Assembly: GCA_951804945.1 (NCBI GenBank)
Contig: OX638153.1
Coordinates: 76,570,001-76,634,000, forward strand
Direction: 5' to 3'
Length of the DNA: 64,000 nt
From: Podarcis cretensis
Lineage: Eukaryota
Every line of letters begins with the position of its first letter. Position 1 is the stretch's first letter. Positions 11,894 through 48,463 of this stretch are shown in pieces. The notes beneath the pieces were generated by a model. It did not search any database. It had not been told where the DNA came from and was given only the letters and a program-made list of their open reading frames with translations. Both the position numbers and the translations under genes were made by a program.

Positions 11894-14800
11894 CGGGAAG
11901 AGTGAAGTGGACATAGGATTGCAGCAGCGTCAGTGTGATGCAATAGTTTACTAGTTTACTCCCAAGTAAACGTCGTTGGACACAGCGGGATTTACGTTTC
12001 ACTAAAAGTAGTTAGGATCACACTCTTAGAGGAGAGTGTTTAACTACAACTGGGCTTAACAATGAAAGCATCTGATAACTCTCCTTTTTTAGGACTGCAG
12101 TCCTAAATTAATAGGTTTAAATCCTATTTATTTAGCTTGTGGGCAACCTTCAGAGCAGACTTCAGGGGCGATCCTAGCCCCATTTACCTGGGAGCAAGTC
12201 CATTAACAACTTATGAGTGGACGTGGCTACGTTTGTGCTGTTAATCTGCTAAGGGCCTGTTTCAGAAACTTTATGTTTGAAAGTTGGAACATATAACTAA
12301 ACACCAGCGATGCTTATTCCACAGCACCTCTTCCATCCTGGAACTGCCTTATGCCAGGATTCCATCCAAAGGAAACATTTTTCTCTCTTTTTTTTTTTTA
12401 AAAAAAAAGACAAATAATTAATGTTAGTGGCCATCGCTGATATCCACGTTGGCCACCCAATGTTAAGAGAATGTTAAGAGAGGAAGTAATTTCTTATAAA
12501 CTACCTATCTATTATAATGGAAATATCTACGGCTTCCCTGCCTCCCACCCCTCAATTTAAGTAAGAATCTTATTGGCATTTCCATAAGTTCTCCACGAGT
12601 ATAAAAGCCATATAATGGGAACAAGGTGAGAAAGCTGTTCAGCCTTGTTTCACCAAGAAAAGGTCGTAAGTCAGGCAATTGGTGTCTGACCTGTCAGGAG
12701 AAGGTATAAAGGCTTCTTTCATTCAGTCGCTCACAATTTTCTCAGCTCTCACAAAAGTGTTTTTATTATTCTGTTTTCTTACCTCGTCCCTTAATTAAAA
12801 AGCTGAATGATTAGAATAGCACCTGCATAATGTCTGGACCACGGCTGCATACTAATTCGAGAGGCTTTACATCTCGTAATTATAACATAAAATCAGAGAT
12901 TGAATAAAACAGAAGGATTGTGCCCCTAAAGCCCTGCTAATCCCCTTTAAAAGAGTCTGCTGAAATAATTCAGAACACTTTCCGGAAGTTGGATTACCGA
13001 CTCCCTTTTTAACTTTGCATAATGAAATGATATTTCACACTTAAAGGAGTGTCTGAATTTTTACAACTGTTTTCCCCCCTCTTAAATTGGACCGTTTCCT
13101 GGACGATTAAAAAAATAATCTGAGGTACTCCCTATCCCCAATCAAACGTTGTTGTTTTTCTTTTGTGTGCTTGTGTAACACCCACCCACACCCACACACC
13201 ACCACCAACATTTTCAAGTTTAGGAAAATACAAGCAGTTGTAGTAGAGACCAGATTTATCAGGATGTTTAGCAGCAAAGCTAAAGCTATTGCTAAGGGAG
13301 AGAATAAAATTGTCACGGGCTACCTGGAGATATATTGTTCTAGCCATATCAATAAATAAATATGCTAAAGAGTGCTGTAATATCTTCAAACTCGACACTT
13401 GTGAATAGATACGGAGTCAATAAAACAATAGCACTATGTTGCATGGCTACATTTCCCCCCTCTTAAGTAGCTCAGTTGAGATTAATGTGATTGATTCAGA
13501 GAAGGTGGGTTGTGGGGTTGTTTTCGACGTTTCAGTGAAGAACAACTTCACCTAAGCCTTGAGGTAGTCAGTTTTAAAGAGGAATAATATAAAAGGTTGG
13601 CTTATTATGTGAAAGCATCTGAGAACTCTGCCACCATTCAGTCAGACGAGAGTAAGTGTATTTAAACCGACTGAGCCACACCGAAGGCCAATGAAACAGG
13701 TAATAAATGAAGCCCCTCGCTTAACTGGGCTGTGGATCGAGGTCCCCAACACTGCAAAACATACAGAGAGAAAAGGGACAAAAATATTGGGAGAGAATGT
13801 AGAAAGTCCTCACGGTTAAATAGAAATCTTTTTAAAAAATGTATATACGTAACTAAAAAGTGATCAGGTTTCTTTCAAGAAGGGAAGGAGACGTTGGATC
13901 ATTCAACAATTTTCCAAATTTATGCATTGATCAAGAGGTTTCTTCCACTCCCATGTTTAGGAAACGTCACATGAAATATTTTGAATCCATTCCCCCCCCC
14001 CCAAGAACTTGCTAGAAATTTTGCACGTTCTGCAATCTTCATCGATTTATTTGCTCTTAAGAGGAAGAAAGATGTGCAGAAACAGTTTTAAAAAGTAAGC
14101 CTACCTTCTTCAAACTGCATTTTGAATGCTACTGACGTAGCAGTGGCGAAGGGATTCAGCCAAGGTTCAAAGGTTAATTTGCAAAAGAAGGAACTGCTCT
14201 TTCAATATATCATTCAGGATCTATCCGTGAAAATAAAACATTTATAATGATGCTGATAATTTTTACATTGTTTTCACACACTCTCTCTGTGTGTTTTTTA
14301 AAAAGAACTAATTACCACATACTATAGCTGCACAATTCTCGAACTTTCTTTAGTTCCTGAACATGCATAGAAAGAAAGGAAACATTTTGCCCCTTTGCAA
14401 AGGTTGCAGCAGTTCTTTTGAATAAACAAGTAAGAAGAAGGGAATAAAAAAATTCCGATGATGTATCATTTCTGCATCCTATCTCTATGGAATAGGGATT
14501 ATATTATATCAAAATTCTTTTCTATCAAAAGAAGACTTACTCTTTGGTTAAGAGGTTGCATGAGGCTCAAAGGAAGAACGTGCTTTAAATAGGTGTGTGC
14601 CTGCCTCCAAGCATTTTCGCCTTCATTTGGAAATCACCATTCTCAGAAGGTAACCTAAAATAATGTGAGTGTAAGCAAATGAACATAGACCCAGATAACA
14701 TGCTGGGATTTAAGTGAAACTGGGGATATTTCTGGTGCGCATGAGAAAAGTGGGGAGTGAAAGCAGGAGAGGACACTCGATCACCTTTAATTCCCTAATT

Positions 14801-17259
14801 TTACTCTGGTTTCTATTACTTCTTCCTTTGGTTATGACGCCAACAGCAGGACTGATGTACGTGGGAACGCCACGATGCTAAGTTCACGCGACTGTGTGCA
14901 CCGGTTGTAGCGTGTATCTATCTGACCTGTAATACCCAGTCATCTCATTGGACCCACCCTTTGAGCACATTACATGAAATCCAGCCTAGGCTTGCCTCCC
15001 AAATTCTTATGTGTGTGTGCTTAGCGGTCAGTACCACTTAGAAAGTTAAGCGTTAAGGTTTCAAATCTCTCTGTTCTCATCGACATAATGGAATACTCTG
15101 GCTCTCAGAGTGCCTAGTCAGCATAGACGACATTGCCCCTCGTTTCCATTTGGTGTAGCTCGCTACTGGATGTGAATATACCGGGCTTGAAAATGCGTAA
15201 AACACAATCCACCGGAGGTGCCTCTTGTGCAAGCCCCATTGAATTGTATGGGAAGCAGGCAAGACGACGAGAGGGTACTCCTTCACTCCGTAGTGACACG
15301 ACTATGGCCTGTGACCCATCAACCCCTGGTAGATTTCAAGAGTTGTTTCGAACAAAGATTTCAGGAGAGCAATTCATGGAAGTTATGTTGTATGCCTGCA
15401 AACGAACATGGCATTAATTTCTCTGGATCTCCACGTAACACACTATACATACATCGTTTCTTCGAACAGCGCAGGGAACATTTAGCACAAAGTCAACTTA
15501 AATCGTGGCTCTCAACCTCTAACCCCAAAGTGTCCATTGTGTTCCTCCTGGCAAAACTTTCATTTCTGAAATATTCCTGGTCCTTTACTCGGAAAGCGGA
15601 AATGTCTTTCCAGGAACTGGATCAAGACCCGAGGGCCAGCTTCCGCCTGATATTCCCTGACACTACCTTCGAATCTAACCGTCTCTACGCGAGAAGCCGG
15701 GCGGCGAGGGCGGATCATCACCACCCCCCGGGTCATATACTTCTAGAGAGAAGCGCGGGCCATTCGTTTTTATGGGCATTCAATTAAAGGAGGTTGCAAA
15801 GACCCCGAAGGTCCTTTCTTCTTCTGCCTGCCCCCCCCCCCAGACCCTCTCCCTTGTATAGTGTGCCTGGGCGGAAACGGGGCTCGGCCGTCCTGATTCA
15901 TATTTCTAATCTTCATTTCCTAAAGATACAAATGGCCTTTTGTGAAATGAATGGTCTTTAATTAATGCGTCCGCACAATGCAGGGGCTTGCATGGGGATC
16001 GATGCTAGAAAGCAACAGGGGAGGAAGCCATCAGAAATGGATTGTCAGCATTAAAGGAAGAAAAAGGCAGCAGCGTCTATAGAAAGAGCAGGGAAGCCTG
16101 CCCACACGTCTCTCCCCATGTTGTCCGAGGGAACCTTCCATGTCTTGCTGACTACAGCCGAGTGTAATGATGATTACAGGGCTTCTGTCTGCGATTAGGG
16201 GCCATATAACTCTTGGCTTTAATAGTCACCGACTCTCCAGCGTTGGGTTGGGGTTAGGGGGCGTTGTTTTGTTTTGTTTTTGTCGTCGTGCTTCCTACTC
16301 GCCAACCTTGCCGTCTGTAGAACAACCCACATTCCCCTCACTTCCTTGAACTCCTTTCCCACGTTCCACTAACCTGGTCTTCCTCTACCCCACCTTGGTC
16401 ATATAGTTCGGCTTCTCTGTAGATGCATAGTAACGGGCCGGTTGTGAAGAATGCAAGCAAGGAGTGTGAGGAACACAACTAAGGTGGGATAGAAGCTAGA
16501 GAGTAGAACAGGGGGACTTGCTTCCGAACACGCATAGGACTGGGCAGTCAACCAATCGCCCTGTCCCAGCTTTACTCAGATCTAAGCACCGTTTGTATAA
16601 GCACACCTTCTTTCCCAGCATAAAGGAAGTGCTACAGACGCTAGCCATCACACACATTGACTTGGGTGTGAGTCTCGCTGATTTTAGTGACCTGTCCTTC
16701 TTTAGTGAATGACAGTCCGATCCTATATATAGCTTGCTTGCTCCAACTGATTTCGACGGGACTTACTGTCGAGTGAGCGCGCATAGGATTCCGGTCTTGC
16801 ACTGATAATATTTCCAAGCAGGAGAAAGGCAAATCAGCGACTTGCACAATGCGCATGTGCAGCAAAACGCAGTAGTAGGCATAGACAGCTAGCAGCGTTC
16901 GATAGATAGATATATACAGTTGTGGGAAGGCGGAGAAATTTGAGGGGACTCATTATGGACTATTCACATTGAAAAAGGGATTGATTACTATCTGCCAGTG
17001 AACTAACTTCTTAAAAACAAGACAATCCCACCCCCGCAGTTCTGGAAATATTTATAAAAACAAAACACTAGTGTAGTAGAAAGCAGATATTATTTTCCTG
17101 CGCCAAACCATTTCTTGGGCACCATAGCTTTCCAACCCTAACTTGAGAGAATCGTTTATCATTTTCAAGGGGCATTGTTGAAACCACAACGGATACTTGA
17201 TTTTCAAAGAATCAGATGGAAGGGGGAGGAGAGAAGAGAGAAAAGTAAAGACGAATTTA

Positions 17260-20200
17260 ATCACAAAGAAGCAAGTTTTATTTTTCTCATGGAGGGCTTT
17301 ATTTTAAAAGTACAAATTATTTCTCCATAAGATTGAGTTTTCAGATAGCAATGATGTTTTCATCCAATATTCGTTTTTTTTATTTATTTAAAAATCCATA
17401 ACATGTCCATAATATTCCAACAACAATAATTGCCATTACATCGCATTAGAAACCGACCCAAATTATACATGGTTGCTGCGTAGAATTGATTTTTCCTTTT
17501 GCTGTTTAGTGTACAAGTGATAGGAGGGGATTGTTAAAAAAAACCTTTCAGAAATAGCACGGTAGGGCGAAAAATAAAACATTTTAATTCATCTTTATAA
17601 AAAGAAGCACCGAAGCTTCGTAAATATTTAAAGATACAATAACACTACGCAGAATTTGTACAAATATCCTTTTCAAATAAAGAAACATTAAAACCCTGGG
17701 GGAAAACTGCATCTATTGGTAGATTGGAAACTGAATTTGGATTATAATCTTCCTTGTAAACGACACATGATTTTGAAATCAGTTTTTAAAAAAATGAGAT
17801 ACCCTTATCTACTGAAGTTCCTGTATTGAATCGTGAGGAATCATCCATTGTGTGTTTCCTTACCCATTCATCCTAGAAGATGTAACCTGAAATTTGGAAA
17901 GTACCTAGGAGAACGTCTCCCCCCCGGTTTTTTTAACCTATGCAGAAGTAAGTGATTTACATTTACTCCCGGGTAAATGTGTATCTGATTGCAGCCTTAC
18001 AGCTCAATCCTCGTTTATCCGCAAGTCCCACTGTTTTCAATGGGGCTTACTCCCATGAAAGCGTCATTAGGAGTCATCCTTACTCCGCTATCTTTTCCCA
18101 CACCCCCTTTTAAGAATGATACCAACGCCACGATTTTTCTCTCCCCATCCACACTCCGTTTTGCTGAAGTCTCAACTTTTGGAGATCTCAAAAACTTTCT
18201 CACTATTTTGTGACATTTTTGTTGGCCTAATAAAAGTATTGCCCTAATACTATGGTGTGGGTAGGTGGGAGTTGCGTTGCGTTTCTTCTTTTGTCTATAT
18301 TTTTCATTCTGATTAAGGCAAGTGCTATTTAAACCTCAATCCTGAATAAATGCCTAAATTTAAGATGAATCTCACTTATTTCAAAGAAGCTTATTACTTC
18401 AGAAATTGTTTAGGACCACAGACTAGAGTTCCGCTGGAAACATTTCAAAACTAACCACGATACATAGAAGTCATTATTATTTATTTCACTAGGACTTATT
18501 TCACATATGGATTGGAACTGATGATGTACAATTGGTTTAAACGACAAATCCTTCTGCTAACTGAGGTATGGACTGGGTGTCTGCGAATTACACTTCCTAA
18601 GACGGCCTCCATAATGCAAGGCCCAGTATCTTCCAATAAACAGGCACCAGCTCTTCTTTCCTCAACCTCTGAGCCAACAAAAACTTACTGGGATCACTGC
18701 CAATAGTTTACACTCAGCACTTGGCTGCGACAAAAGAGGGCCCAACAACGATGCTACCATTTCATGGGGACCCAAAACTACCAGTGTGGCAGAAATGCTA
18801 AAGTGGTGAGCAGTGTATTCTCCAAGCCACTATCTCATTCCCAAAGACATCTATGGACTCTTGAGTTTGGTGTTGTTTTCTCCTCCCAATTGAGAGTACC
18901 AAGTTGCGGAGTGGGATGCTGTTACTTTTCTTTCCACTCGCTGACAATAAAACATTGAGACATATGGAAGCCATCGCTTTGAAGGCGTAACCATTTTAGT
19001 GCACTGCAGTAGAGAAACGTGCTTTTTAATAGGTAGTCTCAGCATTAACAGGAGCCGAGCCTGCAATAAAGGCATGTACGAGCTGTTGCATTCTTTATAC
19101 TGGGATAATGGGAGGGTAGCGAGGTTCAGCAGCTACAGACTTCGTGTTCATGGATGGCGTTCGTAGGAAGTTGGGTTTTGTGCAAAGAACAAAGGCTTGG
19201 GCAGAATTCAAGCAAATGAGTTCGGAATAGAAGATCCAGTCGGGCAGTTCCTCTGGGGCTGAGAAGTTCGGAAAGCAGAAGGGATCCTCTCTCGCTCTCG
19301 TTCTCCACCCCCCTCTCGTTTCCCCCTCCCACCCTCCCCACCCTAGAGCTACACGCCCCCCTCGACCTACAGAGAGACAGACATAGGCAGACAGACGTAG
19401 GTAGATGTATGTATCTGATTGTATACTGGGACATTTTCTGTCTCCATCCCAACGTTATCTTTTAAGAAGTTTGGTTCCATCTCTTTAGAAACGGTCCCAG
19501 CTAACGGGGCAGAGGGAGTTTGACAGAGGGGAGAACAAATCGCTGACAAAGAACCTTTTTACGTTTCATCAGCGTTGTTAGGGCGACGAGGAGGAATTTC
19601 TCAGATAATAACTCCCACTTCAAAGATTTTTCAGCTCAATAGAAATTGGACCATCCTTTTTTATTCAGCCACAAGGGCTAGCACTAAAGACGACTCGACT
19701 GTTTGAATTTTTTTTTTTGTTCGGCGTGTTTATTTTTCCCCTATTCACTGGGGTACTTGGATAAAATAAACAAGAAGACAATTACTGGAACATGGACTTC
19801 TAACTTTCCCGGGACCATGGCCCATCGCCCGTGGCCTCAGACTTGGGAGTGTCAACTTCTGTAGCCCTGGAAGGCATTAAACCCTAATTTCTTGGGACAT
19901 GGTTTTTGCCACACACCTAGGATCTAGTCCTTGTTTGTTTCCGTGAAAGAGTCAAGAAATTCAGAAGATTCCTCAGTCTTTGTTCTGGAAATGGCATCCC
20001 TTTCTATTTCAGTCTCTATCTTCAGCAGTGTGTGTGTGTGGATGTGACTGTGTGTGTTTACAAAGAAGGAAATAGTGTCAAAAAGCAACTTAAAGCCGCA
20101 GCATTCAGCAAGGAGCTAGACCCTAAGGAGGATGGAGTCAGACATAGAAATATCGAAATGTTATTTGCAAAGCAAAGATCAGCAAATGTATACATTTATG

Positions 20201-21114
20201 AATAAGAATATTGACACCAACCACTGTTTGGACCGTACTTGTAGGATGTCTTAGTTAAGGCTTGGGGCGTGGAGACAAGAGTTTTGTGAGCTCACTAGTA
20301 AACAAAACTGGTCCACTACTGACTTGCTCCTGAGCAGTCCTATTCTAGCCAGGTGGGCTGCTTTGAACAAAAGTGGGTCCTCTACTATTGAGTCCCAGCC
20401 CCAGATTTCCATGGTGCAAAATTTCACTCGGCACTGGTAGCTCTTATAAAACCGCCTCGCCCCCCCCCCGCCCGCCCCTACTTCTGTTTCTTAATCGCAG
20501 AGATCCAAGATGCTGCAACAAAAGTCCTCCTTAGAGAGTAAGCCAGCAAAGCAAGCCAAAGGGGACGAGATGGAGGAAGTCCATCTCTGAGGAAGAGCAG
20601 ATTGAATGTATTAAGCTAGCATGAAACCAAAGGTCAGTGCAAATGTATCTTAATAGACTGTCTCGAATGGAGTGTGCCTCCTTTTCAAGGGCGCTTGCTA
20701 TTGCTCTGCTCATTACCATAGCGATCCTAACGTGGCATGTTGATGCACCATAAAGCTCACACTTTCAACCCCCACCCTCCAACCAAAAAAAATAAAATAA
20801 AAATCAGAGCCTTTGAACAAGGCCGGGCTTGATTAGACCTTTCTCCTTTTCTTTTCCCTCCTTCAAACCCATTTCCTCGCCTTTAGAAAAGTCGCCATCA
20901 AATCCCAAAGGCCGTCTCTGATCATGGCCCAGAAGGAGAGAAACAAAAGTGAACTGGCGGACGGCGATTCAGGCGGCCCCCTTTTTCTTCCTGACATTAT
21001 TATCCATTCTGATTATGGGCTGGAACAAGGACCCCCATTCGCGTGGGGGTTTTCTTGCCCCGGAAATTCGGAGGGAAAATATGCATACTCCACGTCCATC
21101 ACGAACACAACATA

Positions 21115-21161
<47 letters not shown>

Positions 21162-21508
21162 TGTGGTTTTGGCACTGTTGGGGTGTTTTCTGTTTTTATA
21201 TATATATATACATCGGTGAGGATGGGAGAAAGAAACTGAGCCGCGAGGGGATGGGGAGAAAGAGAGAGAATCTGTTAGACCTAAATATTATGTCCTTCAT
21301 GAAAAGACTGGACGGGCCCCAGACTTCGCTTTTCACTCTTTTTAAGTATGACTTGCCTATTGCTATAGAAATCTTAACTCACCATGAAGATTCACCGTTG
21401 CGAAGAAATACTTTCATTGTGAGAGACTGCTTTGATGTCTAAGGCATAAGATGCGGGGCTTTTCAGCTGCCTCTGTCTAGATTACCTTGAGAGCAACGGG
21501 ATAGACAT
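17260..21508 (-). other. ZIC4: Putative distal terminal (3'UTR) exon of ZIC4
   Basis: Strong acceptor ggctaatcacctttaatttttcatttgcttgttacag|ATGTC with a branch-point-like CTAAT about 30 nt upstream. The first base A completes TG|A after the donor at 24039. Two AATAAA signals on the - strand (17303-17298, 17282-17277) are followed by U/GU-rich sequence. The 3' end is approximate. Confidence 0.6.
21118..21160. repeat. (GT)n microsatellite within the putative ZIC4 distal 3'UTR
   Basis: Read directly. Confidence 0.95.
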
Positions 21509-23224
21509 CTGTAACAAGCAAATGAAAAATTAAAGGTGATTAGCCTACACATCCAAAAACCGCTTCTGCAAAGAAAGAAATCAAGAAGAAAAGGGAGAGG
21601 GAGGAGGAGGGCCGAGGGACGGAGCCGGGAGGGGGCAACCCAACTCCAGACAAGGTGGAAGCATCTTTCGCAGATGGCCTCCATCCATCCATCTCTACCT
21701 TCTCATTTCCACGACGGCTCCACTAGATCAGAGGGAGTAAACGAGCAGCAGCAGTAGTGGCAACGAATATCTTGTTTTAATTTTTATCCCGAGAATCGGG
21801 ACGGGATGGTTATTTCTTTGTTTGCTATGTTTCGTCCATTTAACTCGGCGATCTATTAAGGATCTCTCGCTGAGGCAGTGAGAAGGAATGGGGAACCAAG
21901 TCATGCACATTGTTCAAAAGGTAGATAGGTGATAGATGGATTGATACCCAGATAGGTAGACTTTCTTCTATTTATTTTATTTTTTAAATTTAATGTGAAT
22001 GCCTGAATGACATCAACCGCTCCATCTTCAGACGTAAGTACCACGGTGTTCACACTTCACTGGGATGTCCCAATGAACTCAGTGGAACTTACTTCCGAGT
22101 AAATAAGCATATGGTCCTGCTGCACAAGGAAGATAGAGAGAAAGAAAGAGTTCAGAAATGTGGGAATGTTAAGGAAGGTAGGAGAGGATATATTGTTTTG
22201 ATATTATCCCTCCTCACTCACGCTCAGAGCACATTCCCTTTGGAGCCACATTCCCCTGTGTGTCCATTCTAGGCAACAGGAAAATGTTGTACTTAACTGC
22301 TCTAGTAATAATACCTCCCACAAGAAACAATAAATTTCTGTTGGTGGTGGTGTGTGCATGGCTAACCCAAAGACTGGGCTGGACGTTTTGCTTCACTCTC
22401 CTTCACTGAACTGAAGGAAATGGCTTTGTAGAAGTGTTTTGGCTAAGATCTTAGAGCGCCTACAGACAAATGGGCCTTTCCATAGTTTAAAAATCGATTA
22501 GAATGAACCACGCCCCCTCCCTCATTCCTAAATATACTGCCTATAAATAAGTTTCATTGAAGTATATGGGTCTTACTACAAAGTGATGCGTTTAGGAGCT
22601 ACAATCAGTAAATGAAATCCATATAATAATATTTCCACAAGCATCCCCCCCCGTCTGGGGAATTCGCTAGTGACAAGGACTCACATAGGGCTGATAAGAA
22701 TCATATAGCTTTAAAGACCCCGACATATGTTCAAGATTTTAAAACCATTTTATTTTTACCTTTACAAAAAATAATAATTAATATTTCGAATTGTTATTTT
22801 ACATAACTACTGTTGTGCGTTTGAAAACCAGACCACCACTGGGTTTACACCACGGGTTCAGAAAAAATCGACACGTCGTGGATCCTTTTGGACAATCCAA
22901 GCAACTCAACACAATTACGTCACTCATAACAACTCCCCCCCCCCTTCTCTCCAATTAACATGGATCTCACCTTCCATCCACTAAGGAATCACAAGAACTC
23001 ACAATTCAACAGAAATAATGCGAGGGAGGGGGAAGAGAAAAGGAGAATATGTTTATGCATTTAAATCCATTACTAGTGTAAATTAAAATGTACCATAAAT
23101 CATTAAGCCACCCTTGGGTCTGTTTTATTAGTGACAAGTGGGAAGAATATACTGGTGAAAAGGGGGCAGTAAAGAGATTCCCCCACCCCCCGAAAAAAAA
23201 CGTCAACTGAACTGGTAAATTAAT

Positions 23225-23245
23225 CAAAGTATTTAATTGATCGAT
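23225..23245 (-). terminator. Candidate proximal poly(A) signal for long-form ZIC4
   Basis: ATTAAA on the - strand at 23237-23232, preceded by TGTA and AU-rich sequence, about 690 nt after the TAA stop. Confidence 0.4.
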
Positions 23246-23923
23246 TTGTTGTACAGTTCGGTAACAAATAATATATTTATAGATACTGATGTTCCTTTTT
23301 GGGAGAAAAAAAGCACACGCACACAGCCCCCCACCCCCGCCAAGAAACCCAATTAAAATCCAGACACTGGGCTAATAAAACTGTCCAAGAAAAAACACCA
23401 TCACAAGATACCAGCACCGACGATCGCAGCTGTACAGCTAGAAATCCGTATTAAAACACTTTGGTTCATTGATACAAAAGGATGTTTCCATTCAAATCGA
23501 GGCCATTGTAAACGTATGGGAAGGAGTTGGTCCGCGGAGTCTGCCCTGGGAGGGTGTAAAATAAAAAGAAGAGCTCATGGAAAGAGGTGCGGGGAGGGGG
23601 AGGTGGCGGGAGGGGGGGTTGCTGTCCTCTGTGCCATAATAAATACAAAACGGGGGTGGGGGAGAGAGGGAGGAGGTTTGTCCACCCCCCCCCAGTGTAT
23701 CTTCTCTCCGATAGCCTGTGCAGCATTTCTGATCGAAGGTGACTGACTGGGGGAAGAGGGAAGAGGCTGGGGAGGGGGAGGCCTGGGATCGATTTCCGCC
23801 CCTCCCCCAAGAACCGGGCCTTGCCGACCCGCCGTTCGTCCAGTGTGAGCCAAGGATCCACAGCACCCCGAAAAGAACAATGCAGTCTCGCCGCCGCCGG
23901 CGGGCCATCCTACCGTATTGACT

Positions 23924-24375
23924 TTAATAAGTGGGCCGGGGCTCGCAGTTCGTGTAAGCGGCCTCTCCCGGGTGAGGTGACGGAGAGTTACTGGGTGGAG
24001 TCGGGATGCCGCTGGCCCCTGAGCTCTGACACACGTACCATTCGCTCAGGTTGGCTGCCGCCTGGGTGGAGGAAGCCGCTGCGGGAGGCGGTGGCGGCGG
24101 CGGCGGCGGCTGAGGGGGCTCCCGGCCGCAGTCCGACGACGGCGACACCAGCGACGGGGTGGACGACTCGTAGCCCGAGCTGGGAGGTGGGGACTTGCAG
24201 TGGACTTTCATGTGCTTCCGCAAGGAGCTGGGGTGCGTGTAGGACTTGTCACAGCCTCTCACTTTGCAGTTGTAGGGCTTGTCGCTCGTGTGCACGTGGG
24301 AATGCTTCTTCCTGTCGCTGCTGTTGGCGAAGCGGCGCTCGCAGCCCTCGAACTCGCATTTGAAGGGCTTCTCGC
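23924..24375 (-). CDS. ZIC4: ZIC4 coding exon with zinc fingers 4-5 and C-terminus (long form ends ...NLSEWYVC...EPRPTY*)
   Basis: Acceptor ctcttttccttgcag|GC GAG AAG. The ZIC4/5-type signature [37 protein letters not shown] continues without an intron into [26 protein letters not shown] at 23926-23924. Long-form CDS is 1647 nt, 548 aa. Confidence 0.95.
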
Positions 24376-26564
24376 CTGCAAGGAAAAGAGGGAATCCAGG
24401 GAGACTTTGCGTAAAGGACCAGGGTGGGGAAAGGTGCGGGTGTGCGTGTTTTATTGGGGTGGCGTGTCTGCAGGTCACAGGTTATTGAGCGATGAGCTCT
24501 GTGTCGCCCTCGCCCCACCTCGCTTTCCCAGCAGTGGCCGTGGAGCCAAACCCAGCAGAAGCGCCTAGCAGCACTGTATGTGAAGAGGATTACAAGGGTG
24601 TGAGGAGAGATCTCTAAAGCTGTGGGGTCTTCTGAAATGACAAAGGGGGGAAGCTTCGTGTGTGAGTTTGTGTGTTCATTTCTATCAATGCTTGCCTTCC
24701 AGTGGAAGGGTGGAAATGTTCCAGGCCTTGGATGAAGGGCCTGAGGCGAGGAGATGGGACAAGGCTTTCTCTTCCCTAGGCTCCTCTTTTCCTTACCGTG
24801 TCCGTATGGACACATATTTCCCATCTCACAAATGCCCCTCCAAGCTCTCTCACCTGACAACCCCTTTACTTCAGAGATGGCTACATAACCTAGGTTAGGA
24901 TCTGAAACCCCAGAACCTACGGATTCGTGGCCTTGTGGTGCATAGCTTCTTACTAGTCTCGGGCACTCCCACATAAACAACTCCACATGCTGCAAGGCGC
25001 CTTCTTCTTGCGCGCGCACACAGAGTCGCACAAGAGCTCACATTTGACCTTGCCAATAGGCTTTGGAGGAAAGTGGGATTGCAAAGTAGGCTTTGGAGGA
25101 ACCGATGAGCAAATATCAGCAGCCTGCTCATTAAAACCATCGTTTAGATACCACGGTTGAACCAGTGTTGCACAGGTTTAGAAATATANNNNNNNNNNNN
25201 NNNNNNNNNNNNNNNNNNNNNNNNNNNNNNNNNNNNNNNNNNNNNNNNNNNNNNNNNNNNNNNNNNNNNNNNNNNNNNNNNNNNNNNNNNNNNNNNNNNN
25301 NNNNNNNNNNNNNNNNNNNNNNNNNNNNNNNNNNNNNNNNNNNNNNNNNNNNNNNNNNNNNNNNNNNNNNNNNNNNNNNNNNNNNNNNNNNNNNNNNNNN
25401 NNNNNNNNNNNNNNNNNNNNNNNNNNNNNNNNNNNNNNNNNNNNNNNNNNNNNNNNNNNNNNNNNNNNNNNNNNNNNNNNNNNNNNNNNNNNNNNNNNNN
25501 NNNNNNNATTCATATGGAAATAACTAAAATAATACATAAGTTAACCTAAAGGCAGTTCTGGTAGTTTCTGGAGAATAATCTACGATAGAGTATCTTTCCA
25601 CTACATATCCTTGGTATAGATTAATAGAAGGATCTCAGTAGCATTCTGCTCGGAAAGCCAACGCCTTACTGAGTAGGCCAAGATTTCATTTCGCTATCAA
25701 GGAAAATCTGCAGAAACTAACAGACAGGGACATATTTAGCAGCGGAGAGAAAGAAAAACAACGACGCAGTCCATAGTGCATTGTCCATGGGAGAACTCAT
25801 TGATCTGGCTAGATGATATGCATTGGAAACATATTAAACACCATATGCAGGATGAGATATTGGAAAGGTGAGGAGGGGTGAGAGACGGAAGGAAGCCAGA
25901 TTCCCCAGGAAATCTACTGGAGATAGTCTGTACACCAAATGCTGCATGGGCGATTTTTCACCGATAAAGGAAAACACGTTGAAGCCACGTGCTTTGATGT
26001 CTCTACGGGGCACGGATGCCTTATTCTGAAAAACCAACAGACAGAGACGCTTGCGTACGAAAGTCGGGCAAAAATGATATAACGCATATTTGACAGGGAT
26101 GGGAAATGAAGGTCAGGATACTATGTGTTTCTTAGAGGCAAATGTTGCCAAAATAGCAGGGTAAGTGCATATGTGTGTTAGTGTGTGTTTGTTTGTGTAG
26201 CATTTTTAAAACATGAGTTCCTTAATGAGGCCATGTTGTATATTCAGACTTCAGCACAAAACATTTTTTTTTAATTAAAAAAAGCTGTGTCTACTGAATA
26301 TGCTAAGGCTAAAGCGTTCTTTAAGAAATGTTGGTGGGGAGCTAAGCAACTGCTACTCCTCCCCTACAAAAGCATTCTCTGTCGGTGTAATGATTCAGGG
26401 AAATCCGCCGTGCTGAACGGCTAGTTATTGCAAGGAGTAAAATATGGTTCCACATTTTAAAGAATATCGGTAGCAAATACCAATATTGGTTTCAGGCCTG
26501 CGAGAAAACGACGTTTTTAGCAGGCCAGGCATGACAAGTGAGGCTCCGTGTGTACCTGCATCGG

Positions 26565-26635
26565 AAGGTATTTACTCATTTTGCTTTGTTTTGGTATTTA
26601 CTCGTAAGGTATTTACTCATTTTGCTTTGTTTTGG
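26565..26635. repeat. Local 30-bp direct duplication (period 41)
   Basis: aaggtatttactcattttgctttgttttgg occurs at 26565-26594 and 26606-26635. Confidence 0.9.
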
Positions 26636-27193
26636 CGGGGAGAGAAAAGAAAAGGAAGGTCATCTGTATATTTTGACGGCTCTTTGAGTATTTTAATTAT
26701 AGTTCCTTGTAAAGAAACAGTTTGACCTTCCGCTACTCAGCTGAAATAACAAATCACGAGGATTGGTGTAGCACAGGCAAGCAGTAAGTTAGGAGGCCCT
26801 GGGGAGAGGCCCCGTCATAAACCCAGCGATCGGGCGGAGTGAGTTACATCGTGGTATAAGACCGGTCTTGTTTCTCGCGAGCAGCAACAAAATAAATAAA
26901 TAAATAAAAATGGCCAGCTTCTTTTACGCCCCCACCTTCCACACCTCGGCATCTTGGCAGAGGTAAATAAAAGCCCCGGCCACAAGAAATGATTGCATAA
27001 GGGGGCTCTTCCTTGTCGGCTGCAGCGCATTATCTGTGAATGGTTTCAGGCCTAGGGTTAATGTTAGAGTTCCGCGTTAAAAGGATAGGATTCCGTGCGC
27101 GTAAATATGCATCGGTCAAAAGGAAAGTGTGTTTGGGGGTGGAGAGAGGAGAGGAAGAGAGGAAGCGAGGACTGAGGATGGATGGGGGCAAGG

Positions 27194-27229
<36 letters not shown>

Positions 27230-28430
27230 GCGAGTCGACACCGCCATTTTCTACCCACACTTGTAGCTCTCACAGGACTCGCTGTGGAGAGCAATACGTA
27301 CAGCTTGGAGATTTTAGCATAATCCTCCCAACTCTGGGACTGGATTAAAGTATTTGCAAAATTCTCGAGGGGGAGGGGAGGAGGGATATTGAGCTTGCCA
27401 GCGCCAGCACTATAAATTACAAGTTAAAACATACCTCTCTTACTGCGGCCTAAACACCACCTTGGTCACAATTGTCCCTTGGCCACTTCTGATGGTAAGG
27501 AAGTGATTTTTGCTTTCCTTCTTTTGATACCTGTGTTACGTTATTGTGAATTAAGTTCGTCCTCCCTCCCTCTCTCTCATCTCCAGAAACCCATTCCTGT
27601 CTGCCCAGGCTCAGGGAAACGCAACGTCATTAATATTTGAGAAGGCAATTATTTTCTCGTTTAAATCTAGAACTGTCTTCATGAATAATTTGCAGGAAGT
27701 TCTATTGCCATTTCAGAAACATTTGGGTTTGAGAATTTAGGGCGGGGTGGGTCAATCGAAAACGCTGCATTGTAATAAGGCCTAAAGATTCCACCTCCAC
27801 CTCTCCCTCTCTCCACCCCAAGCCTAGCCCACCACCACTGCAAAAATAAATTAATTAAGCAGGGAAGTTCAAGCGAAACGACTACATAATGTAGTACATT
27901 TTGAATGCTGAACTCCAAGCCCGCACCCTTCCCAGGCACTCAACTGGTTGCACTGATGTAGGTCAAATTTACCAAGAATCCGACCATTTTCTGCTTCATA
28001 GACTTCAAAGGAGAAGGCGGCTAAAGGGCAGTAAAAGTTTGTTTACTTAAGAAAAACACTGTAATTAAGGGATGAACTGTGCTCTTCAGTGCTTTCCTAC
28101 CTAACACGAAGATGCCTTGGTGTCATTCGCATTATTAATATTTTAAATAAAATAAGTAACAAAATATTCTCCACCAAAAGCACAGCTTTATTTTAAACGT
28201 AGTTTTTGGAGGGGGGGAGGGGACTAACCTAACCGTACTACAGTTAAGGCTACGACATTTTAGAACTGCAGAAAGAGAGAGAGAGAGAGAGTCGTTGGGT
28301 TGTAAGGATATCTTACAATAGGATTATGTCGTTTTCCTGGGAGTTTATAAGGCTGTGGAGTGTGTATGCAAAAAAAACTGCACAGTGGAACGGATTTAAT
28401 TTTCCAAAAGGGCTTATTTATTATCTTCTG

Positions 28431-28488
<58 letters not shown>
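28431..28488. repeat. Compound (GT)n(GA)n microsatellite in the ZIC4 intron
   Basis: Read directly. Confidence 0.95.
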
Positions 28489-28491
<3 letters not shown>

Positions 28492-29376
28492 TCAGATAGG
28501 AAGGAGTGGAGTGAAGAAGGCAATAAAAAGCTAAGAAGACCGGCTGCTAAACTAACTCTACAACTTCACAGGCTGAATTTGGAAGTCTGAAAACTTTATA
28601 CCGCTAGTTTCATTCATTCACCACAGATGCTTCTGTGAATTCCGAGGTCAAAGAGGGTGTTGGCAAGGTCTTCCCCTTCAAATAACTTTCCTTCCTGTGT
28701 TAACTAGAAATTGTTCCTATTTCTGACAAAATATTCCTTCATAATTCTGGCCAATGACCGTTCAAATGGAACAGGCTAGGTAGACAAAATTAACTCCAAA
28801 CACACACCACTACTCCCCTCTTTCCTTCCCAGGTTCCAAAAGAGCACCTTCCCATATTTCAATCTCCGTAGCAGTTTAAGAAGGAAAAGGCTCTTACGAA
28901 GACTTGGGATGAAACATCGCAGGGTTCCTCGTACAAAACAAAAAGAGGGGACCTTGCAGCTGTGCTTTTCTCACAAGGAAGGCGGCAGAAGCAGCATCCC
29001 AGCAGCATCACTCAAAACTGCCTAGACAAGTTGCAACTTCCATTGTTCGCTCCTAATTTGCGAGCTTGCATCAAGATTGGATGCTTTTCCGTCTCTATAG
29101 GGCTTTTTAACTCTCCCCTCTCCAGGAAATCCCGATCTAAATCATGGAAGACCCTTCTTGCATAAGCACATACACATACACGTCAGCATTATGCATCCAC
29201 ACAAGCCTCAATTCTTCAAACGAAAGACAACAATCAAAACAAACTATTGATCCGGTCTTCATTGGCTAGTATTAATTCTATGTAAAATTATAGCGGGCGG
29301 GGGTGGGGTGGGGAGATCGCACATGCAGCAGATAGTTGAACAAAACACGAATGAAGAAAGACCTTTCCATACTGAC

Positions 29377-30571
29377 CTGTGTGCGTCCTTTTGTGGATTT
29401 TGAGATTTTCCGAGCGAGCGAAGACTTTCCCGCATCCCGGGAAAGGACAAGGGAAAGGTTTCTCCCCCGTGTGGACTCGGATGTGGTTGACCAGTTTGTA
29501 TTTGGCCTTGAAAGGCTTCCCTTCCCTGGGACACTCTTCCCAGAAGCAAATGTGGTTGGACTGCTCCGGCCCTCCAACGTGCTCCACGGTGACGTGAGTC
29601 ACCAGCTCGTGCATGGTGCTGAAAGTTTTCGAGCATAATTTTTTGGGAGTCTGGTCCAGTTCGATCCACTTGCAGATGAGCTCCTGCTTGATGGGCTGCC
29701 TCATGTAGCGGAAGAAAGCCCCAGGGCCGTGGTGTGGAGCTAAATTCACGTTCAGGTTCATGCCACCGTAGCCGTGGAAGGAGGAAGCAGCAAAAGGATC
29801 TGTCCTGGAGACTGGTACTGGCGTGAAAGGTTCAGACCTGGCATACATTTCTCCAGGTAGCCCCAGCCTTATCTGTCCGTTTAGATGGCCACCTGGAGCT
29901 GCATGGGGATGTTGCTCATGGTGGAGTCCAGTAAAAAGCGAGGGAGTTCCGGCTTCTGAGTGGTGGTGGTGGTGGTGGAGGTGGTGGTGGTGGTGAGCAT
30001 GGTGTCCGGGGTAGCTACCTGTTGTTGAGACAAACATTCCATGGTGAGAACCTGTAGCAGCAGAGTGTTGATAAGGGAGCCCTGGCATGACTGGGGCTGT
30101 CAGATCTCTGCGCAGGAAGAATTCCCTACCTGATGAAAGAGCATGACTTGGGTGAGGGACTGCGTAAGGGACTGTTGTTGACTGCGCTGGGCCAAATGCT
30201 CCTGCTGGACTGGGTACCACCTCGGCTTGGCCTGTCACAGGATGGTGGGGATGAGGCTGAGGGGCAGGGCTGAGCTTAAGGGCCGCTGAGTGATGAGGAG
30301 GATGAGAGTGGTGGCGGTGGTGATGATGATGATGATGGAGAGGATGGTGGTGGTGCCCCATGTGTTCTGACCGGAATGGACTCAGCCCGAGGCGGCTTTC
30401 TGCAGCGTACTCCCCAGGGTGCGTGGGAACCATGGAGTGGGGATGCCCGGCGAAGCCTGTCATGCTCTGAGGGGAGTGGTGATGGTGGCGGTGATGACGA
30501 TGACGAGGAGCCCCTGCCAAGCCTAGTAACTTCAGCGCCGTGTTCCGTTTGGAGAGTGAAGCAGAGTCCAT
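29377..30571 (-). CDS. ZIC4: ZIC4 large coding exon (long His-rich N-terminus, ZF-NC, zinc fingers 1-3)
   Basis: [13 protein letters not shown]...[20 protein letters not shown]...[37 protein letters not shown]...HKRTHT. Phase-1 donor ACAG|GTCAGT at 29377/29376. Head-to-head with ZIC1, as in the known ZIC1-ZIC4 pair. Confidence 0.95.
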
Positions 30572-30939
30572 TACTGGGCTCCCCCAAAGCCTCCAAGCTC
30601 TCCTGGTTCTACTACAATTCTAAAAAGTCACCTGACGCCGAGGAGGGGGGAGCGAGGGAGAAAGAGGAAGAGGGAAAGAGCGGTGGAAAAACTTTTTTGA
30701 AAGTCCCCCGCCCCACCCGCAAAGAAAAAAAGGTTTTCCCCTCCCTCTCTCTTGGTCTGGACTATTTGGCTTTGTTTTGTTTTTGCTCCCTGCTCCCCCC
30801 CCTTCCCCTTTCTTTTCTCCCCCTCCTCTTCCATTATTTTGTGTGTGTGTGTTTTTCCTCCTTCCTTTTTTTTTTAATGCCTACGTGGAATCCCATACGC
30901 TTTGAGAAGCAGCAGCAGGACGCTGGGAGGCTACTGAAT

Positions 30940-31120
30940 AGCGCTTCACAGACTAGGCTCCAACCCAGAGAGCTAAACAATCAGGGCGGTCGCTGATTGG
31001 CCGAAGCTGCCTGACCGAAGTCAGCGCTGACAGGTCCCCGCTGAAGTCTGAAAAGATTTAGGAAGGGGTAAAGGGGCGGGGAGGGAGGAAGAGGACTCGG
31101 GAAGCAGTGCGCCTGCGCTG
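30940..31120 (-). promoter_or_regulatory. Proximal promoter of the long ZIC4 form
   Basis: GGCCAATCAG on the - strand (about 30993-31002) next to a GC box (GGGCGG 30984-30989), in CpG-rich DNA about 400 bp upstream of the ATG at 30571. Confidence 0.55.
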
Positions 31121-31639
31121 CGTTTGTGGCTAATCTCCCCCCCCTCCAAAAGCTCCTTCCCTTTCTCCCCCTCCTCTTCCCCCTTTGCCCCCCTCCCTCT
31201 CTAGCCCTAACCAGTGCGCCGAGCTTGTCCGGTGTTTGCATTTACTCCCCGCATTTTGTTTTTATCTGCGTTTAACTGATTAAGGGCCGCTGGAACCGTC
31301 TTCCCCAGACGAAACGAGGGGTCCTCCGAGTCGTTTACGCGCTAATGAGCAGTGGTTGCCAAAGGAGGAACAAGGCCTTGAGCAAGCGGCGGCAGCAGCT
31401 CCTGGGAGCGCCTGGGAGGCGAGGCTGGCCGGCGGGTGGCTGTTGCTTTCTCCCCACCCCTTCCAAAGACGCTTTGGTTGTCCCCGATCATCTGCTTAGA
31501 AGAGCCAGGCGCTTGGAGGTATCCTGGGTGATCTCCTGACTCCTGCATGGCTTGGATCGTGGCTCAAGCCCCTTCTGCTTTCTGTTCTCCTGCTAACCAT
31601 TTACTTTTACACACACACGTTCTTCTTCCACACCCAGCC

Positions 31640-31780
31640 CTGTCTCTCTTTCTCACTTAGCCTCATAATGAGCAGACGATTTAATGGAAAGCTCAGATCG
31701 GTGTCTGCTTCGGGGCGGACTGCCTGATTGGCCACCGAGCAGCTCATTGTGGACTAACCAAAGTGCAATTCTCAACACCC
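31640..31780 (-). promoter_or_regulatory. Second CCAAT + GC-box module upstream of ZIC4
   Basis: GGCCAATCAG on the - strand at 31733-31724 with GGGGCGG at 31712-31718, in the same order and orientation as the module at about 31.0 kb. Confidence 0.4.
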
Positions 31781-34700
31781 TTCCAGTTTCCTTCCTGCAA
31801 GAGCAACAACAAAGATGGAGAAGGGGCGGGAGGGAAGGAAGGTAGCACACATCACACAGGGACTTTCACAAAACTTCCGCTCTCGAGGGACAGGGGAGCG
31901 GCGGGGGGGGGGGGGGCAAACACGGCTAGGCCAAGCCACCGCAGAAATCAGCAGGGAAGGAGGTAGGGAGGAGAGAGACTGCCCGGAGAAGGTCTGCCGA
32001 GACGTAGCAAGCTCTCCTCCGTCCCCTTTCCCTGCCCTCACAATCGCCCAGATTATGAATGAATCCGAAAGACAGGACACGCGCGGGGCTTTCTGAGACC
32101 GCCTCATAAATTCCTTTGCCTACGACCCACCATTGTAGGAAGTAGAGAAGCGCGCAGGTTTGTTACCAAGCCTGTTTTGGGCCAGGAGCAAAAGTCTAGA
32201 TTTTTTTTTTTAAGCAATACAGCGATGGTGGTGGACCCCAAACCCCGGACCAGGCAAGATGCTTTCGAGGGATCCAATCCTACACACACACAACCTCCAC
32301 CCTCGCTTCCTAACCGCCAGCCCAACCGCGCCATCAATTTGACTGCTGATTATTTATAGCACAGACAAATCTCCGGGACTCCCGTCCCCAACAGAAATGG
32401 GCACAATGTGGAAGAGACAGGCTTTGCATACAGAAGTCGTCCTGGGAAGCGGAGCTGGGCAGCTAGGTATTTAGATTTCTGACACTTGTTGGCGGCCCAG
32501 AGAACCAGGCCTTTAAAACAACAACAACAAAGGCTAAAGCTCTGCCACATCTTTCATTTCCCACGATTACACGATATTTATGTAACCCTCCCTTTAAAAG
32601 TAATACAAAAAAGTAATACCTAATACCTGCAATTAACTGGCGCATATAACCCAATCCAAATGTTGCAAATCATTTCATCGTGTTGAATCCCTTTGCCTCT
32701 CCCTGTCAAACGCAATCGCCCACATTCATTTATAAGGAGCAATTAAAAGATCAAGTCAATTTAAAAAGCAACCTGTAGATTAGTAGATAAATCTATCGGA
32801 CGTTATGAGGCTCACATTTGCTCATTGTCAAAAGGAAAATAAACCGATTGCAAGTGTACTGTATCCGTGATGAAAATACAAGTATAGGGTTTATTATTTT
32901 TACCCCCACCAAAAAAAAAAAGTCATTGAGAGCCCTTCCAATGAATGCTGGAACCCGATATTACTGAATTCAGGTAATTCTGTTCTCCTCCATTTAGTGG
33001 GATAATATCAAAATTCGGCCTTGAACTCTGGACCTAAACTCCTAAACGTAAAAGTTACTTTAAGTACACCCACTTTCTGCAGAAGGGCAGCTTTCAATTT
33101 TACTTAAAATCCAGTAAGAAACACGGCAATTTTGAGAATGTTTCCCCCCATTGAACAAGCAGCATTTTTTTACTTTTAAATGACATCCGGCGAAAAGAGC
33201 CCTTTATTTTTATTTCATTTTTAAAAACTGAACCATTTGGGCAAAAGTAAAATGCAAAATCAACACGTACTTTTAAAAATAATACTGTATTCTTTTCCGC
33301 TTTGTGTCCCGTGTTAATAGCAGCACAAGTGATGTCCTGAAACCGAAAGCCGCTCTTAAGTTACTTGTGGTAATGCCCTGAGTATTAGTGAGGTCAGTGT
33401 TATTAAAGATGCAATCACAACACTCACTTGAGAGTAATCCCAACTGAATTCAGTGGAAGTTCCGAGGAAACATGCATAGGATGGGCTTTAACTCATTTCA
33501 GATGCAAGACTATGTGATGAATTAAAAGTGCCCCCCCCCCCAAGGAAGTCACATATTAAAGGAGAATAACATCATTTCTCGGGATACAGAACTTCAGTTT
33601 CAAGAGTAAATATTTCTTTCTCTCATCATCCCAAAATTTACATCCTGTCATACAGTAAATAAACTATCTGAAGCCGCACTGAACACTTACAGCTTTTCCA
33701 CCACTATCCCCTTCCCCCCAAAAATATTTGAACTTTTTGTTTTTATTTTTTAAAAGCAACGTTTAGCTATACTGTGAAAACAGTTGCCAGTCACTGCATT
33801 TTAGAAAAATCACCCCGGAGACAGACCTTAGCAAACATCAAAACAATTTCTTGGGATATTCTAAAGTTGCTAGCTAAATGTTGTTTTTGTATGCTTGGGA
33901 ACAACAATTCCCGACTCAAGCAATTGCCAGTCAAATTTACGTAAAGCAGAAAATAGGAGCCTGCCTCCTATAAAATATTTTTGAATTGCTAAATCGTGGA
34001 ATATTGCGTTCAAGATGTACGACATGCATAAATAATTATCTAAGAAGCATCTCATTACATTTTATACCATAGCGGGAGTTATATTCTTGTTTTTGACCAT
34101 TTTTGTACAGATCACAATACTGAGGATAAAATAAAAGGCAGCTAAATCGGTATTTATTATTGTATGAATGTAACGCGCGCGCACACATTGATGCCCCGAG
34201 GACCTGAAAAGTTACACACGCTGTAATTAACTAGCTCTCCTTACGTAACATGTTTATGTAGACAACTTAACCCCCCCAGCAGTTCAAGACGACCTTCCCT
34301 TGCCAGTTTCTTTGCCCTAAGCCAAAAACATTTCGTATTTTCCCTTCCTCCTCCCTGACCATCTCCGAAGGAGATCACAGAAAGAAAGAAACGTTATCGG
34401 AAGCAGGACTCTGGAAGGCTGTTACTTACAAAGGTACTGAGAGTGTGACTTCCAAATAAAGCTGTTTTCCTCATCCCTCCTTACAACCACTTCACCTCTA
34501 CACTCTTGACATCCTTCAGTCCTGACAGTCCTCAGTCAAGGGAGAAAACATCTGGAACAGTTTATCAATATATATATGTTACTATCGGTTGGCTTAGGCC
34601 ATTCTAAAATATTGGCATGGCTTCTTGTCAAACGCTAATGGCTTTATCCGCTCTTACTTAAAACCCTGAGGTTCCTCACAGGGGTTTCCCCCCCTTGTTC

Positions 34701-34821
34701 CCCCCTCTGCTTGCATGAGTCCAATGGAAAAGAAATGGCCCATGGTGTCTCTCTCATTATATTAGGTGAAGTTAGTGCTCTCACTCCTAGCATTTGTTGT
34801 GTACCTTGGGAGACATATCTC

Positions 34822-34826
34822 TGTGC

Positions 34827-34857
<31 letters not shown>

Positions 34858-34864
34858 CGCGCAT
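34822..34864. repeat. (GT)n(GC)n alternating purine-pyrimidine tract
   Basis: tgtgcgtgtgtg...gcgcgcgcgcgcgcat, read directly. Confidence 0.9.
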
Positions 34865-37747: not shown

Positions 37748-37832
37748 TTGACTGTCCCAGAAGGTTTCTGTAAAGTCGTTTTCTTTTCCTCATTACAAGG
37801 CGACCCTTGTGCCTTATTTTCTAACTTGGTTC
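37748..37832 (-). CDS. ZIC4: ZIC4 alternative upstream 85-nt exon carrying a mammal-type start (ATG at 37793; MRKRKRLYRNLLGQS)
   Basis: Acceptor ccacttttctctcctgaacag|GAACC and donor TCA A|GTAAGT. Translation IRHKGRLVMRKRKRLYRNLLGQS aligns without gaps to the human ZIC4 N-terminus as I recall it ([23 protein letters not shown]). Its phase-1 end matches the internal acceptor at 30018. Confidence 0.8.
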
Positions 37833-42173: not shown

Positions 42174-43426
42174 TTGTGTGTGTGCGTGCGTACGTTTGTG
42201 TGTGCAAGCCTTCTTTCATGCAAGCAGCATTACCTCCGCTATCGGTCAGAAACTATGAAGCCGTGCTAATAGAACTGCCCCGAATATCCTCCTTTATGCA
42301 TTGAACCTACTCGGAAATTTGATATAATTTGGTATTACACTGCCGAATGGCAGTAAAAAGGTGGTTTTTGTTTTACTTAAACCAAACAGTGTGCCCCTCC
42401 CACATTTCACTGAAATATACAGCTCTGAAATAGGAAATATTTTTCGTGCACTTTTATCTGCCAAGGGAATTGATTCCTAATTCCTTTAACAGAAAACAGG
42501 ATAAATCAGGTTGGGGAAAAGTCATAGCGAAGTCACATAAAGGCTGGACAAAGGTTCAAAACCCGAAGGGCTTTGACTTCTAGTTAACATTTATTAACAT
42601 CCCTCTCCCTCTCCGTCTAACACACAGGCTCACATTTTCTGTATTGGGGTTGGGGATGGTCCAGGTTAAAATATCATTATTATGGTTTTTTAAAAAAACC
42701 AAAACTAAAAACACTGTTCTCAGCAAAACGCACCCTTTCTCAAAACTGCACGGGCATCACAGGGAATAACATACCCAAGTTGCTTTGCTTAATTGATTGA
42801 GTCACAAAGATTGTCTCTTTTTAAGTAACCATACTTCTACATCTCGACAATCATTTTAATATATAGTCAATGGGTCTTTGTAACAGGAACAAAGAGGAAC
42901 TATCCGTAGTTTTTCAATAGACTTGAGTTGGGTAAAGGCAGGTTAATCGAGGGGTTGCATNNNNNNNNNNNNNNNNNNNNNNNNNNNNNNNNNNNNNNNN
43001 NNNNNNNNNNNNNNNNNNNNNNNNNNNNNNNNNNNNNNNNNNNNNNNNNNNNNNNNNNNNNNNNNNNNNNNNNNNNNNNNNNNNNNNNNNNNNNNNNNNN
43101 TCAGCAACAAAGGCGCCGCCTGCTTTTTCCACCGTCCTGGTGTGGCAAGTTGAGGAATTTCAATAAATGTGACAAGGGTGACTGATTTGTGAACTAGAAA
43201 AGGTTTGAGCGTCAGAAAATTTATATTGCTCCTATCTAGTGAGGATTTCAAATACATTATAAAACCCCAGGATCCAAAAGCTCCATGCAGCACAGAAGAG
43301 ACAAAAGCAACTTTGGGGAAAAAAATACAGTCTTTTTTTTTTTACCTGAATGAAAGAGGTCGCGTAAAAAAGAAAGAAAGAAAAACAAGAAACAAAGTGC
43401 AGGGAGATACAATAACAACACTACAC

Positions 43427-48265: not shown

Positions 48266-48463
<198 letters not shown>

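Follow-up and report, generated by a model that had tools for sequence, protein, structure and literature searches.

A splice donor encoded by the E-W-Y-V codons of Podarcis ZIC4 probably joins a conserved last exon and removes an ancestral C-terminal tail

We analysed the ZIC4 gene in a window of 64,000 nucleotides (nt) from Podarcis cretensis (assembly GCA_951804945.1, contig OX638153.1, positions 76,570,001 to 76,634,000 of the forward strand); coordinates below are those of this whole stretch, and a slash marks a splice junction. The gene lies on the minus strand and was identified by its ZIC-type C2H2 zinc fingers and by its top protein matches, which are squamate ZIC4 proteins (82-98% over the C-terminal region). 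We consider it probable that a donor at 24039, embedded in the codons for E-W-Y-V, is joined to a conserved last exon beginning at 21508, and that the split triplet TG/A becomes a stop codon and yields a short protein like that of human and mouse; loss of the tail is predicted to alter the activity of the protein. The sites, the frames and three possible endings are present in the window sequence, and all three endings exist as isoform models in close relatives. The truncated product is already known: it is the canonical ZIC4 protein of human and mouse, and annotated examples exist for Podarcis, Pogona, Liasis and Heteronotia.

The 337-nt exon that encodes zinc fingers 4-5 and a Ser/Pro-rich region (24039..24375, minus strand) can end ...GAA TG/GTACGT, that is, ...NLSE-TG, and orthologous proteins end or diverge exactly at this 5' splice site (ATG/GTACGT, 24033..24041, minus strand). 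The preliminary description held that donor 24039 and acceptor 21508 form a TG/A stop, and that 46, 642 and 337 nt plus one base encode 341 amino acids (aa); letters, frame and arithmetic are right, and the product ends NLSE. Splice sites in 17000-36000 were scored with a crude weight matrix, whose frequencies are approximate, and on this measure the donor ranks 18th of 991 GT sites and the acceptor 6th of 1203 AG sites. We rejected such scores as proof, because the sites are ordinary in strength and the donor is dictated by the codons. Indeed, all four synonymous codings of E-W-Y-GTN yield a similar donor (scores 2.6-3.8), and an ATG/GTACGT identical to that of ZIC4 lies in the NEWYV codons of the neighbouring ZIC1-type gene, just ahead of its stop codon (48451..48459, plus strand). 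Since a donor is unavoidable where E-W-Y-V is encoded, and since a rival acceptor would also give an A, the junction is not beyond chance on the window sequence alone; what supports it beyond chance comes from the orthologues.

The alternative 3'-terminal intron would span 2530 nt (21509..24038, minus strand), as the orthologues indicate. Its acceptor has the context ttacag/A (...TTTCATTTGCTTGTTACAG/ATG, first exon base 21508; the sequence preceding this A is ...TTGTTACAG/A) and, with the conserved first ~128 nt of the exon that it opens (21381..21545, minus strand), is orthologous to the beginning of the last exon of mammalian ZIC4. The mammalian donor occupies the same codon position, behind the TG of the Trp codon, and proteins either stop after xLSE or go on with C if no stop forms. 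The latter is the case in horseshoe bats, where the join makes no stop, so that annotated isoforms read on past the junction: Rhinolophus P0318, P0325, P0395 and P0396 continue LSE-C-CPPRCSQGSLSPRS up to a stop, a 15-residue extension. We placed TG before each of the 632 AG sites in 14000-24030 and translated the result. With 21508 this reads stop-CLSRCSQGNLDRGS-stop and agrees with the bat tail at 9 of 15 positions, stop included, which is the best of the 632 sites; the runner-up has 5. Using tblastn, nine of 42 mammalian protein tails were found to match 21509-21381 (E 4e-6 to 0.013), mostly from the acceptor or the adjoining base. Moreover, Saimiri X3 (P0365), in which the 337-nt exon is skipped, enters with DVHRVARKVI, in the frame whose alignment to the window starts at 21509. 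Thus, the homology to the mammalian last exon that had been named as a test for this region is recovered in register, via translated models and not by DNA alignment, and judged by this comparison the acceptor at 21508 and that of the last exon of mammalian ZIC4 are orthologues.

The register test found no clear counterpart in the window for the second bat tail (CGCLW...), the turtle WPSY ending or the thrush CGFIQ... tail (best 4, 2 and 5 identities, respectively); Rhinolophus P0320 and P0326 carry a tail of 12 residues that differs from the 15-residue extension. A plus-strand tblastn match of P0297 (E 0.005) was off-target and was taken as chance. A scan of 20000-24400 against Rfam at gathering thresholds returned 0 matches, and the 19 sequencing runs matching part of 21000-24400, none of them recorded as RNA, were not used as evidence.

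It seems improbable that the lizard uses, in place of 21508, a nearer and pyrimidine-richer acceptor 57 nt upstream (first exon base 21565; 21540..21585, minus strand), which would give the same protein from another junction coordinate. This site is the first met when scanning from the donor, would likewise supply an A and has the higher crude score (10.2 vs 8.5). However, the mammalian junction products match 21508 only, with none at 21565, and a branch-point-like word, CTAAT, stands at -32 of 21508, whereas 21565 has the weaker TTGAT at -16.

The product predicted from 21508 has a well-established counterpart. Human ZIC4 (P0353; ZIC4_HUMAN, NP_115529.2) has 334 aa and ends TADLSE, in agreement with the ending ...DLSE given in the preliminary description; the human cDNA product FLJ44632 (P0372) stops at the same residue, and mouse isoform 2 (P0411), of 334 aa, ends DVSE. 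The lizard spliced form would share with these proteins the end residue, the type of short N-terminal exon (MRKRLRLYRN) and the orthologous last-exon acceptor. Mouse, rat and primates have annotated read-through forms of ZIC4 as well. Seven primate UniRef models (P0367-P0371, P0373 and P0374) have 185-186 aa, with the short N-terminus and a read-through tail at the end, a length which suggests that the large exon is skipped.

For comparison across animals we assembled 442 proteins from homologue searches and cluster look-ups, with at most 15 members per cluster among the matches listed. Several isoforms of one species, partial entries and some unnamed records that were assigned by similarity enter the counts drawn from this set, which describe a pattern and not frequencies, as the first homologue search scored the tail and so favoured tail-bearing forms. 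In lizards, three choices would be available at the donor. First, if the donor is unused and the proximal polyadenylation (poly(A)) site is taken, the ancestral EWYVCQ...PTPP tail would be kept; the bases that encode this conserved read-through tail, (W)...PTY plus stop (23924..24038, minus strand), double as the beginning of the alternative intron. Second, splicing to 21508 would remove the tail and attach a long 3' untranslated region (UTR). Third, in Podarcis-like lizards, splicing to an alternative acceptor at 23545 across a 493-nt intron would swap in an unrelated tail of 48 aa, WADSAD...GAGIL (23401..23545, minus strand).

With the long N-terminus, these choices give products of 548, 510 and 558 aa, each of which is matched by annotated models. 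The 548-aa read-through product is identical to isoform X2 at 545/550 positions in Podarcis raffonei and 544/551 in P. muralis; the 510-aa product, which ends NLSE, at 507/512 positions to X4 of P. raffonei (510 aa) and 506/513 to X4 of P. muralis (511 aa); and the 558-aa product at 555/560 positions to X1 of P. raffonei. The same long N-terminus with both the read-through and the NLSE-stop ending is found in P. raffonei and P. muralis X1-X6, Pogona X1/X2, Liasis 1-T1/3-T3 and Heteronotia X1/X2, the NLSE endings outside Podarcis being those of Pogona X2, Liasis 3-T3 and Heteronotia X2. The Podarcis models share the 23545 ending with the window and are ~99% identical to its products, but no RefSeq lizard model is letter-identical to them. 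The third tail occurs as an identical NLSE-WADSAD...GAGIL in 8 Podarcis entries and in no others of the 58 squamate proteins listed, so that it may be a recent, lineage-specific exon. Combinations with the short N-terminus are annotated as well, with the read-through tail in Zootoca X2 (374/380) and with the 23545 ending in P. muralis X5 (386/391); the 341-aa form, with short N-terminus and stop, is absent among the 58 squamate proteins listed and has counterparts in birds, marsupials and human. The four ZIC4 proteins previously proposed as a maximum are therefore an undercount, since annotated Podarcis forms include the 23545 ending as well as a 111-nt in-frame intron in the large exon; going by these annotations, ZIC4 has at least three N-terminal and at least three C-terminal options. 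Models of the RefSeq type are usually built on RNA-seq alignments.

The read-through and 21508 endings would also differ in their 3' UTRs. The read-through and 23545 forms could use a proximal AATAAA, a candidate poly(A) signal (23124..23129, minus strand) whose first base, 23129, lies 795 nt after the read-through stop, where ~0.7 kb had been estimated. A cluster of three AATAAA words (17277..17388, minus strand) is a candidate distal poly(A) region; that at 17282 lies 4226 nt after 21508, for a 3' UTR of ~4.2 kb, and further AATAAA sites occur in between. Both endings are annotated in close relatives, and separate poly(A) sites are indicated by hexamers only. The best-scoring donor of the 3' region, AAG/GTGAGA at 22971 (minus strand), stands just past the proximal signal; splicing from 22971 to 21508 would place the read-through stop upstream of a junction, a possible route to nonsense-mediated decay (NMD).

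As for the spliced form, its stop would fall at the last junction, and escape from NMD is plausible provided that donor-like sites in the last exon go unused: if 21508 begins the last exon, the stop does not lie more than 50-55 nt before a later junction, which is the NMD criterion. Two such sites, AAG/GTAATC (21486) and ATG/GTGAGT (21383), stand 23 and 126 nt into the exon on the minus strand. The first 126 nt are non-coding yet conserved to mammals, and the frame that follows the TGA, of 14 codons, closes where that of bats does. It could be argued that 21508 opens an internal exon of 126 nt (21508-21383) that is spliced onward, with a premature stop through which NMD lowers ZIC4 output, no stable short protein being made. 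Between 24400 and 17000 only one donor outscores the site at 21383, and several mammalian gene-prediction tails match the window no further than this site. However, human and mouse have the truncated protein as their reference form, backed in human by a cDNA product, and a ZIC4 coding sequence of 1005 nt was the one cloned for assays (PMC7403390). In addition, Saimiri X3 passes the homologous donor site unspliced and reads on to its stop, which favours a terminal exon. We therefore hold onward splicing to be of low probability.

The distribution of the endings suggests how the junction may have arisen. Proteins ending at the junction account, among those listed, for 3 of 44 in amphibians, 6 of 58 in squamates, 2 of 26 in turtles, 17 of 35 in birds, 5 of 5 in monotremes, 8 of 15 in marsupials, 59 of 140 in eutherians and 0 of 7 in invertebrates; the fish count, 0 of 112, is suggestive only, given the tail-scored search and the partial listing. 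The amphibian NLSE models come from one caecilian and two frogs (Rhinatrema, Spea and Ascaphus; P0085, P0195 and P0293), so that use of the donor would predate the amniotes. The read-through tail itself is ancient, for EWYVCQ...TPP is present in all 6 invertebrate tails. Its TPP motif occurs in 59/74 distinct read-through tails listed from fishes, 18/18 from amphibians, 19/19 from squamates and 5/6 from turtles, and in 0/7 from birds, 0/3 from marsupials and 0/44 from eutherians. Thus the tail is degenerate in mammals, with lengths of 12-315 aa among the eutherian tails, whereas in the lizard it is intact: after WYV, the window tail is identical to a shark tail at 17 of 19 positions, and we infer that selection on it persists in lizards. 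A course of events consistent with these patterns would be as follows. Coding W-Y-V produces the donor as a by-product, and the site would lie latent across the Zic genes; its partner acceptor would have been gained in tetrapods; and the spliced form would have come to predominate in birds and mammals, with later decay of the read-through tail there, while lizards and turtles kept it intact.

These same data leave room for a reading in which the junction is real but reflects, in lizards, a cryptic donor that cannot be avoided and leaks at a low level, the read-through form being functional and the spliced forms noise or tolerated. Any coding of E-W-Y-V creates the donor, and lineage-specific acceptors are joined to it, namely 23545 in Podarcis, that of the WPSY ending in a sea turtle and that of the second bat tail. 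Read-through is modelled in 42 of the 58 squamate proteins listed, the lizard tail is close to that of a shark (17/19), and the counterpart donor in ZIC3 is inactive in wild-type cells (PMC11470249). Nevertheless, the acceptor at 21508 and ~128 non-coding bases after it are recognisably conserved in register from lizard to mammals, and the truncated form was modelled independently in four squamate genera. We regard leakage as unlikely on balance, though as the most serious competitor to a functional junction.

With respect to function, removal of the tail would take off a C-terminal regulatory motif whose loss deregulates ZIC1. Disruption affected 66% of the Xenopus embryos given the ZIC1 variant p.Ala437*, which lacks the last 11 residues including NEWYV, and 8% of those given the full-length protein (PMC4564895). 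As the motif is removed, the spliced form of ZIC4 is predicted to differ in activity from the read-through form, and would most likely be more active in embryo assays. The truncations of ZIC1 that cause craniosynostosis (PMC4564895; PMC13328068) resemble spliced ZIC4 in that the zinc fingers are intact, the NEWYV-type motif is gone and the stop lies in or at the last exon; they differ in being pathogenic nonsense alleles of a paralogue, most of which lose more than the motif.

Besides the caution attached to the fish count, several points weigh against a functional junction at 21508. The lizard isoforms are computational models (XP_ accessions), and the excess of read-through models among them implies that the spliced form may be minor in lizards. 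A protein ending NLSE cannot separate 21508 from 21565 or from any other acceptor that starts with A. Were the donor at 21383 in use, the stop would lie ~125 nt upstream of a junction, that is, beyond the 50-55 nt of the NMD criterion. On the functional side, missense changes of ZIC1 outside NEWYV, one of them probably benign, also gave ~60% in the Xenopus assay (PMC4564895); reporter activity in HEK293T cells fell by 48% with ZIC1 Glu402Ter (PMC13328068); and ZIC3 truncations without the C-terminus failed to transactivate (PMC7403390). The direction in which tail loss acts is thus unsettled.

The behaviour of ZIC3 offers a parallel to the junction itself. Human ZIC3 mutant cells use a normally inactive exon 3 donor, with an exon 3T(170), and form a junction-spanning stop, p.W465*, at the cost of three residues (PMC11470249); from the residue number and PMC4564895, these would be the W-Y-V of NEWYV. 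This cryptic donor acts only with a pathogenic intronic variant and is silent in wild type (PMC11470249), whereas the ZIC4 donor appears to be a normal, conserved route. It is tempting to speculate, and we do so tentatively, that ZIC4 kept the NEWYV-type motif that restrains other ZIC proteins but splices it out at a donor built by the motif itself. Under this proposal, tetrapods made a regulated switch of a latent site that misfires only in the ZIC3 disease allele; the switch would be the physiological counterpart of the ZIC1 gain-of-function truncations, both states would be kept functional in lizards and turtles, and birds and mammals would have gone over to the truncated form as the tail decayed.

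Alternative last exons, whether a retained or composite terminal exon against a distal one, and stop codons split by an intron belong to a well-known general class. What sets ZIC4 apart from this class is that a conserved protein motif dictates the donor and is destroyed by splicing there.

The remainder of the gene is laid out as follows, all on the minus strand. An upstream exon (37748..37793) contributes 46 coding nt (MRKRKRLYRNLLGQS) from an ATG at 37793, has the donor AGTCAA/GTAAGT and encodes the short, mammal-like N-terminus, also found in Zootoca X2 (P0098) and P. muralis X5 (P0125). A large coding exon (29377..30571) encodes the long N-terminus, from an ATG at 30571, and zinc fingers 1-3, and its internal acceptor at 30018 gives the 642-nt short form. 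Within it, the 111-nt in-frame intron (30019..30129; donor 30130, acceptor 30018) would remove 37 aa, for a predicted product of 521 aa that is identical to P. raffonei X3 (P0130) at 518/523 positions; it shares its acceptor with the exon of the short N-terminal form. In Xenopus, opossum, coelacanth and several teleosts, X1 and X2 models form pairs with a difference of 36 aa, which suggests that this intron may be old. Runs of N, which are assembly gaps, lie at ~25190-25507 and 42961-43100, with shorter ones near 3.1, 6.4 and 10.2 kb; one of these runs sits in the ZIC4 intron upstream of the 337-nt exon. On the plus strand, an open reading frame that starts at ~45090 (MLLDAGPQ...) and ends NFNEWYV completes a head-to-head pair within the window; from its sequence we take it to be ZIC1. 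Pairing of ZIC4 with ZIC1 has been reported (PMC7403390).

Our literature search, to which most subscription papers and supplements were outside scope, returned no description of the ZIC4 junction or of an isoform switch, no account of a 'missing' NEWYV-type motif of ZIC4 being encoded but spliced out, and no account of a read-through tail that is decayed in birds and in mammals yet intact in lizards. A survey of conserved Zic domains reportedly names a conserved C-terminal domain and might discuss the event. As far as the available excerpts go, a 2010 statement has it that no zic splice forms were reported (PMC2908108), and ZIC4 is listed among genes with many cerebellar isoforms, the forms not being described (PMC10807796). 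Functional work used the 334-aa form only (PMC7403390), which means that one of at least two C-termini was tested.

The splice event itself is therefore no discovery, its product being the reference human protein. What the comparison does is to correct the printed picture, as the motif thought absent from ZIC4 is encoded and probably spliced out. In lizards, where the ancestral tail and the last-exon acceptor are both intact, the isoforms provide a natural pair for testing a motif of unknown function, and such a test would bear on the ZIC1 alleles of craniosynostosis.

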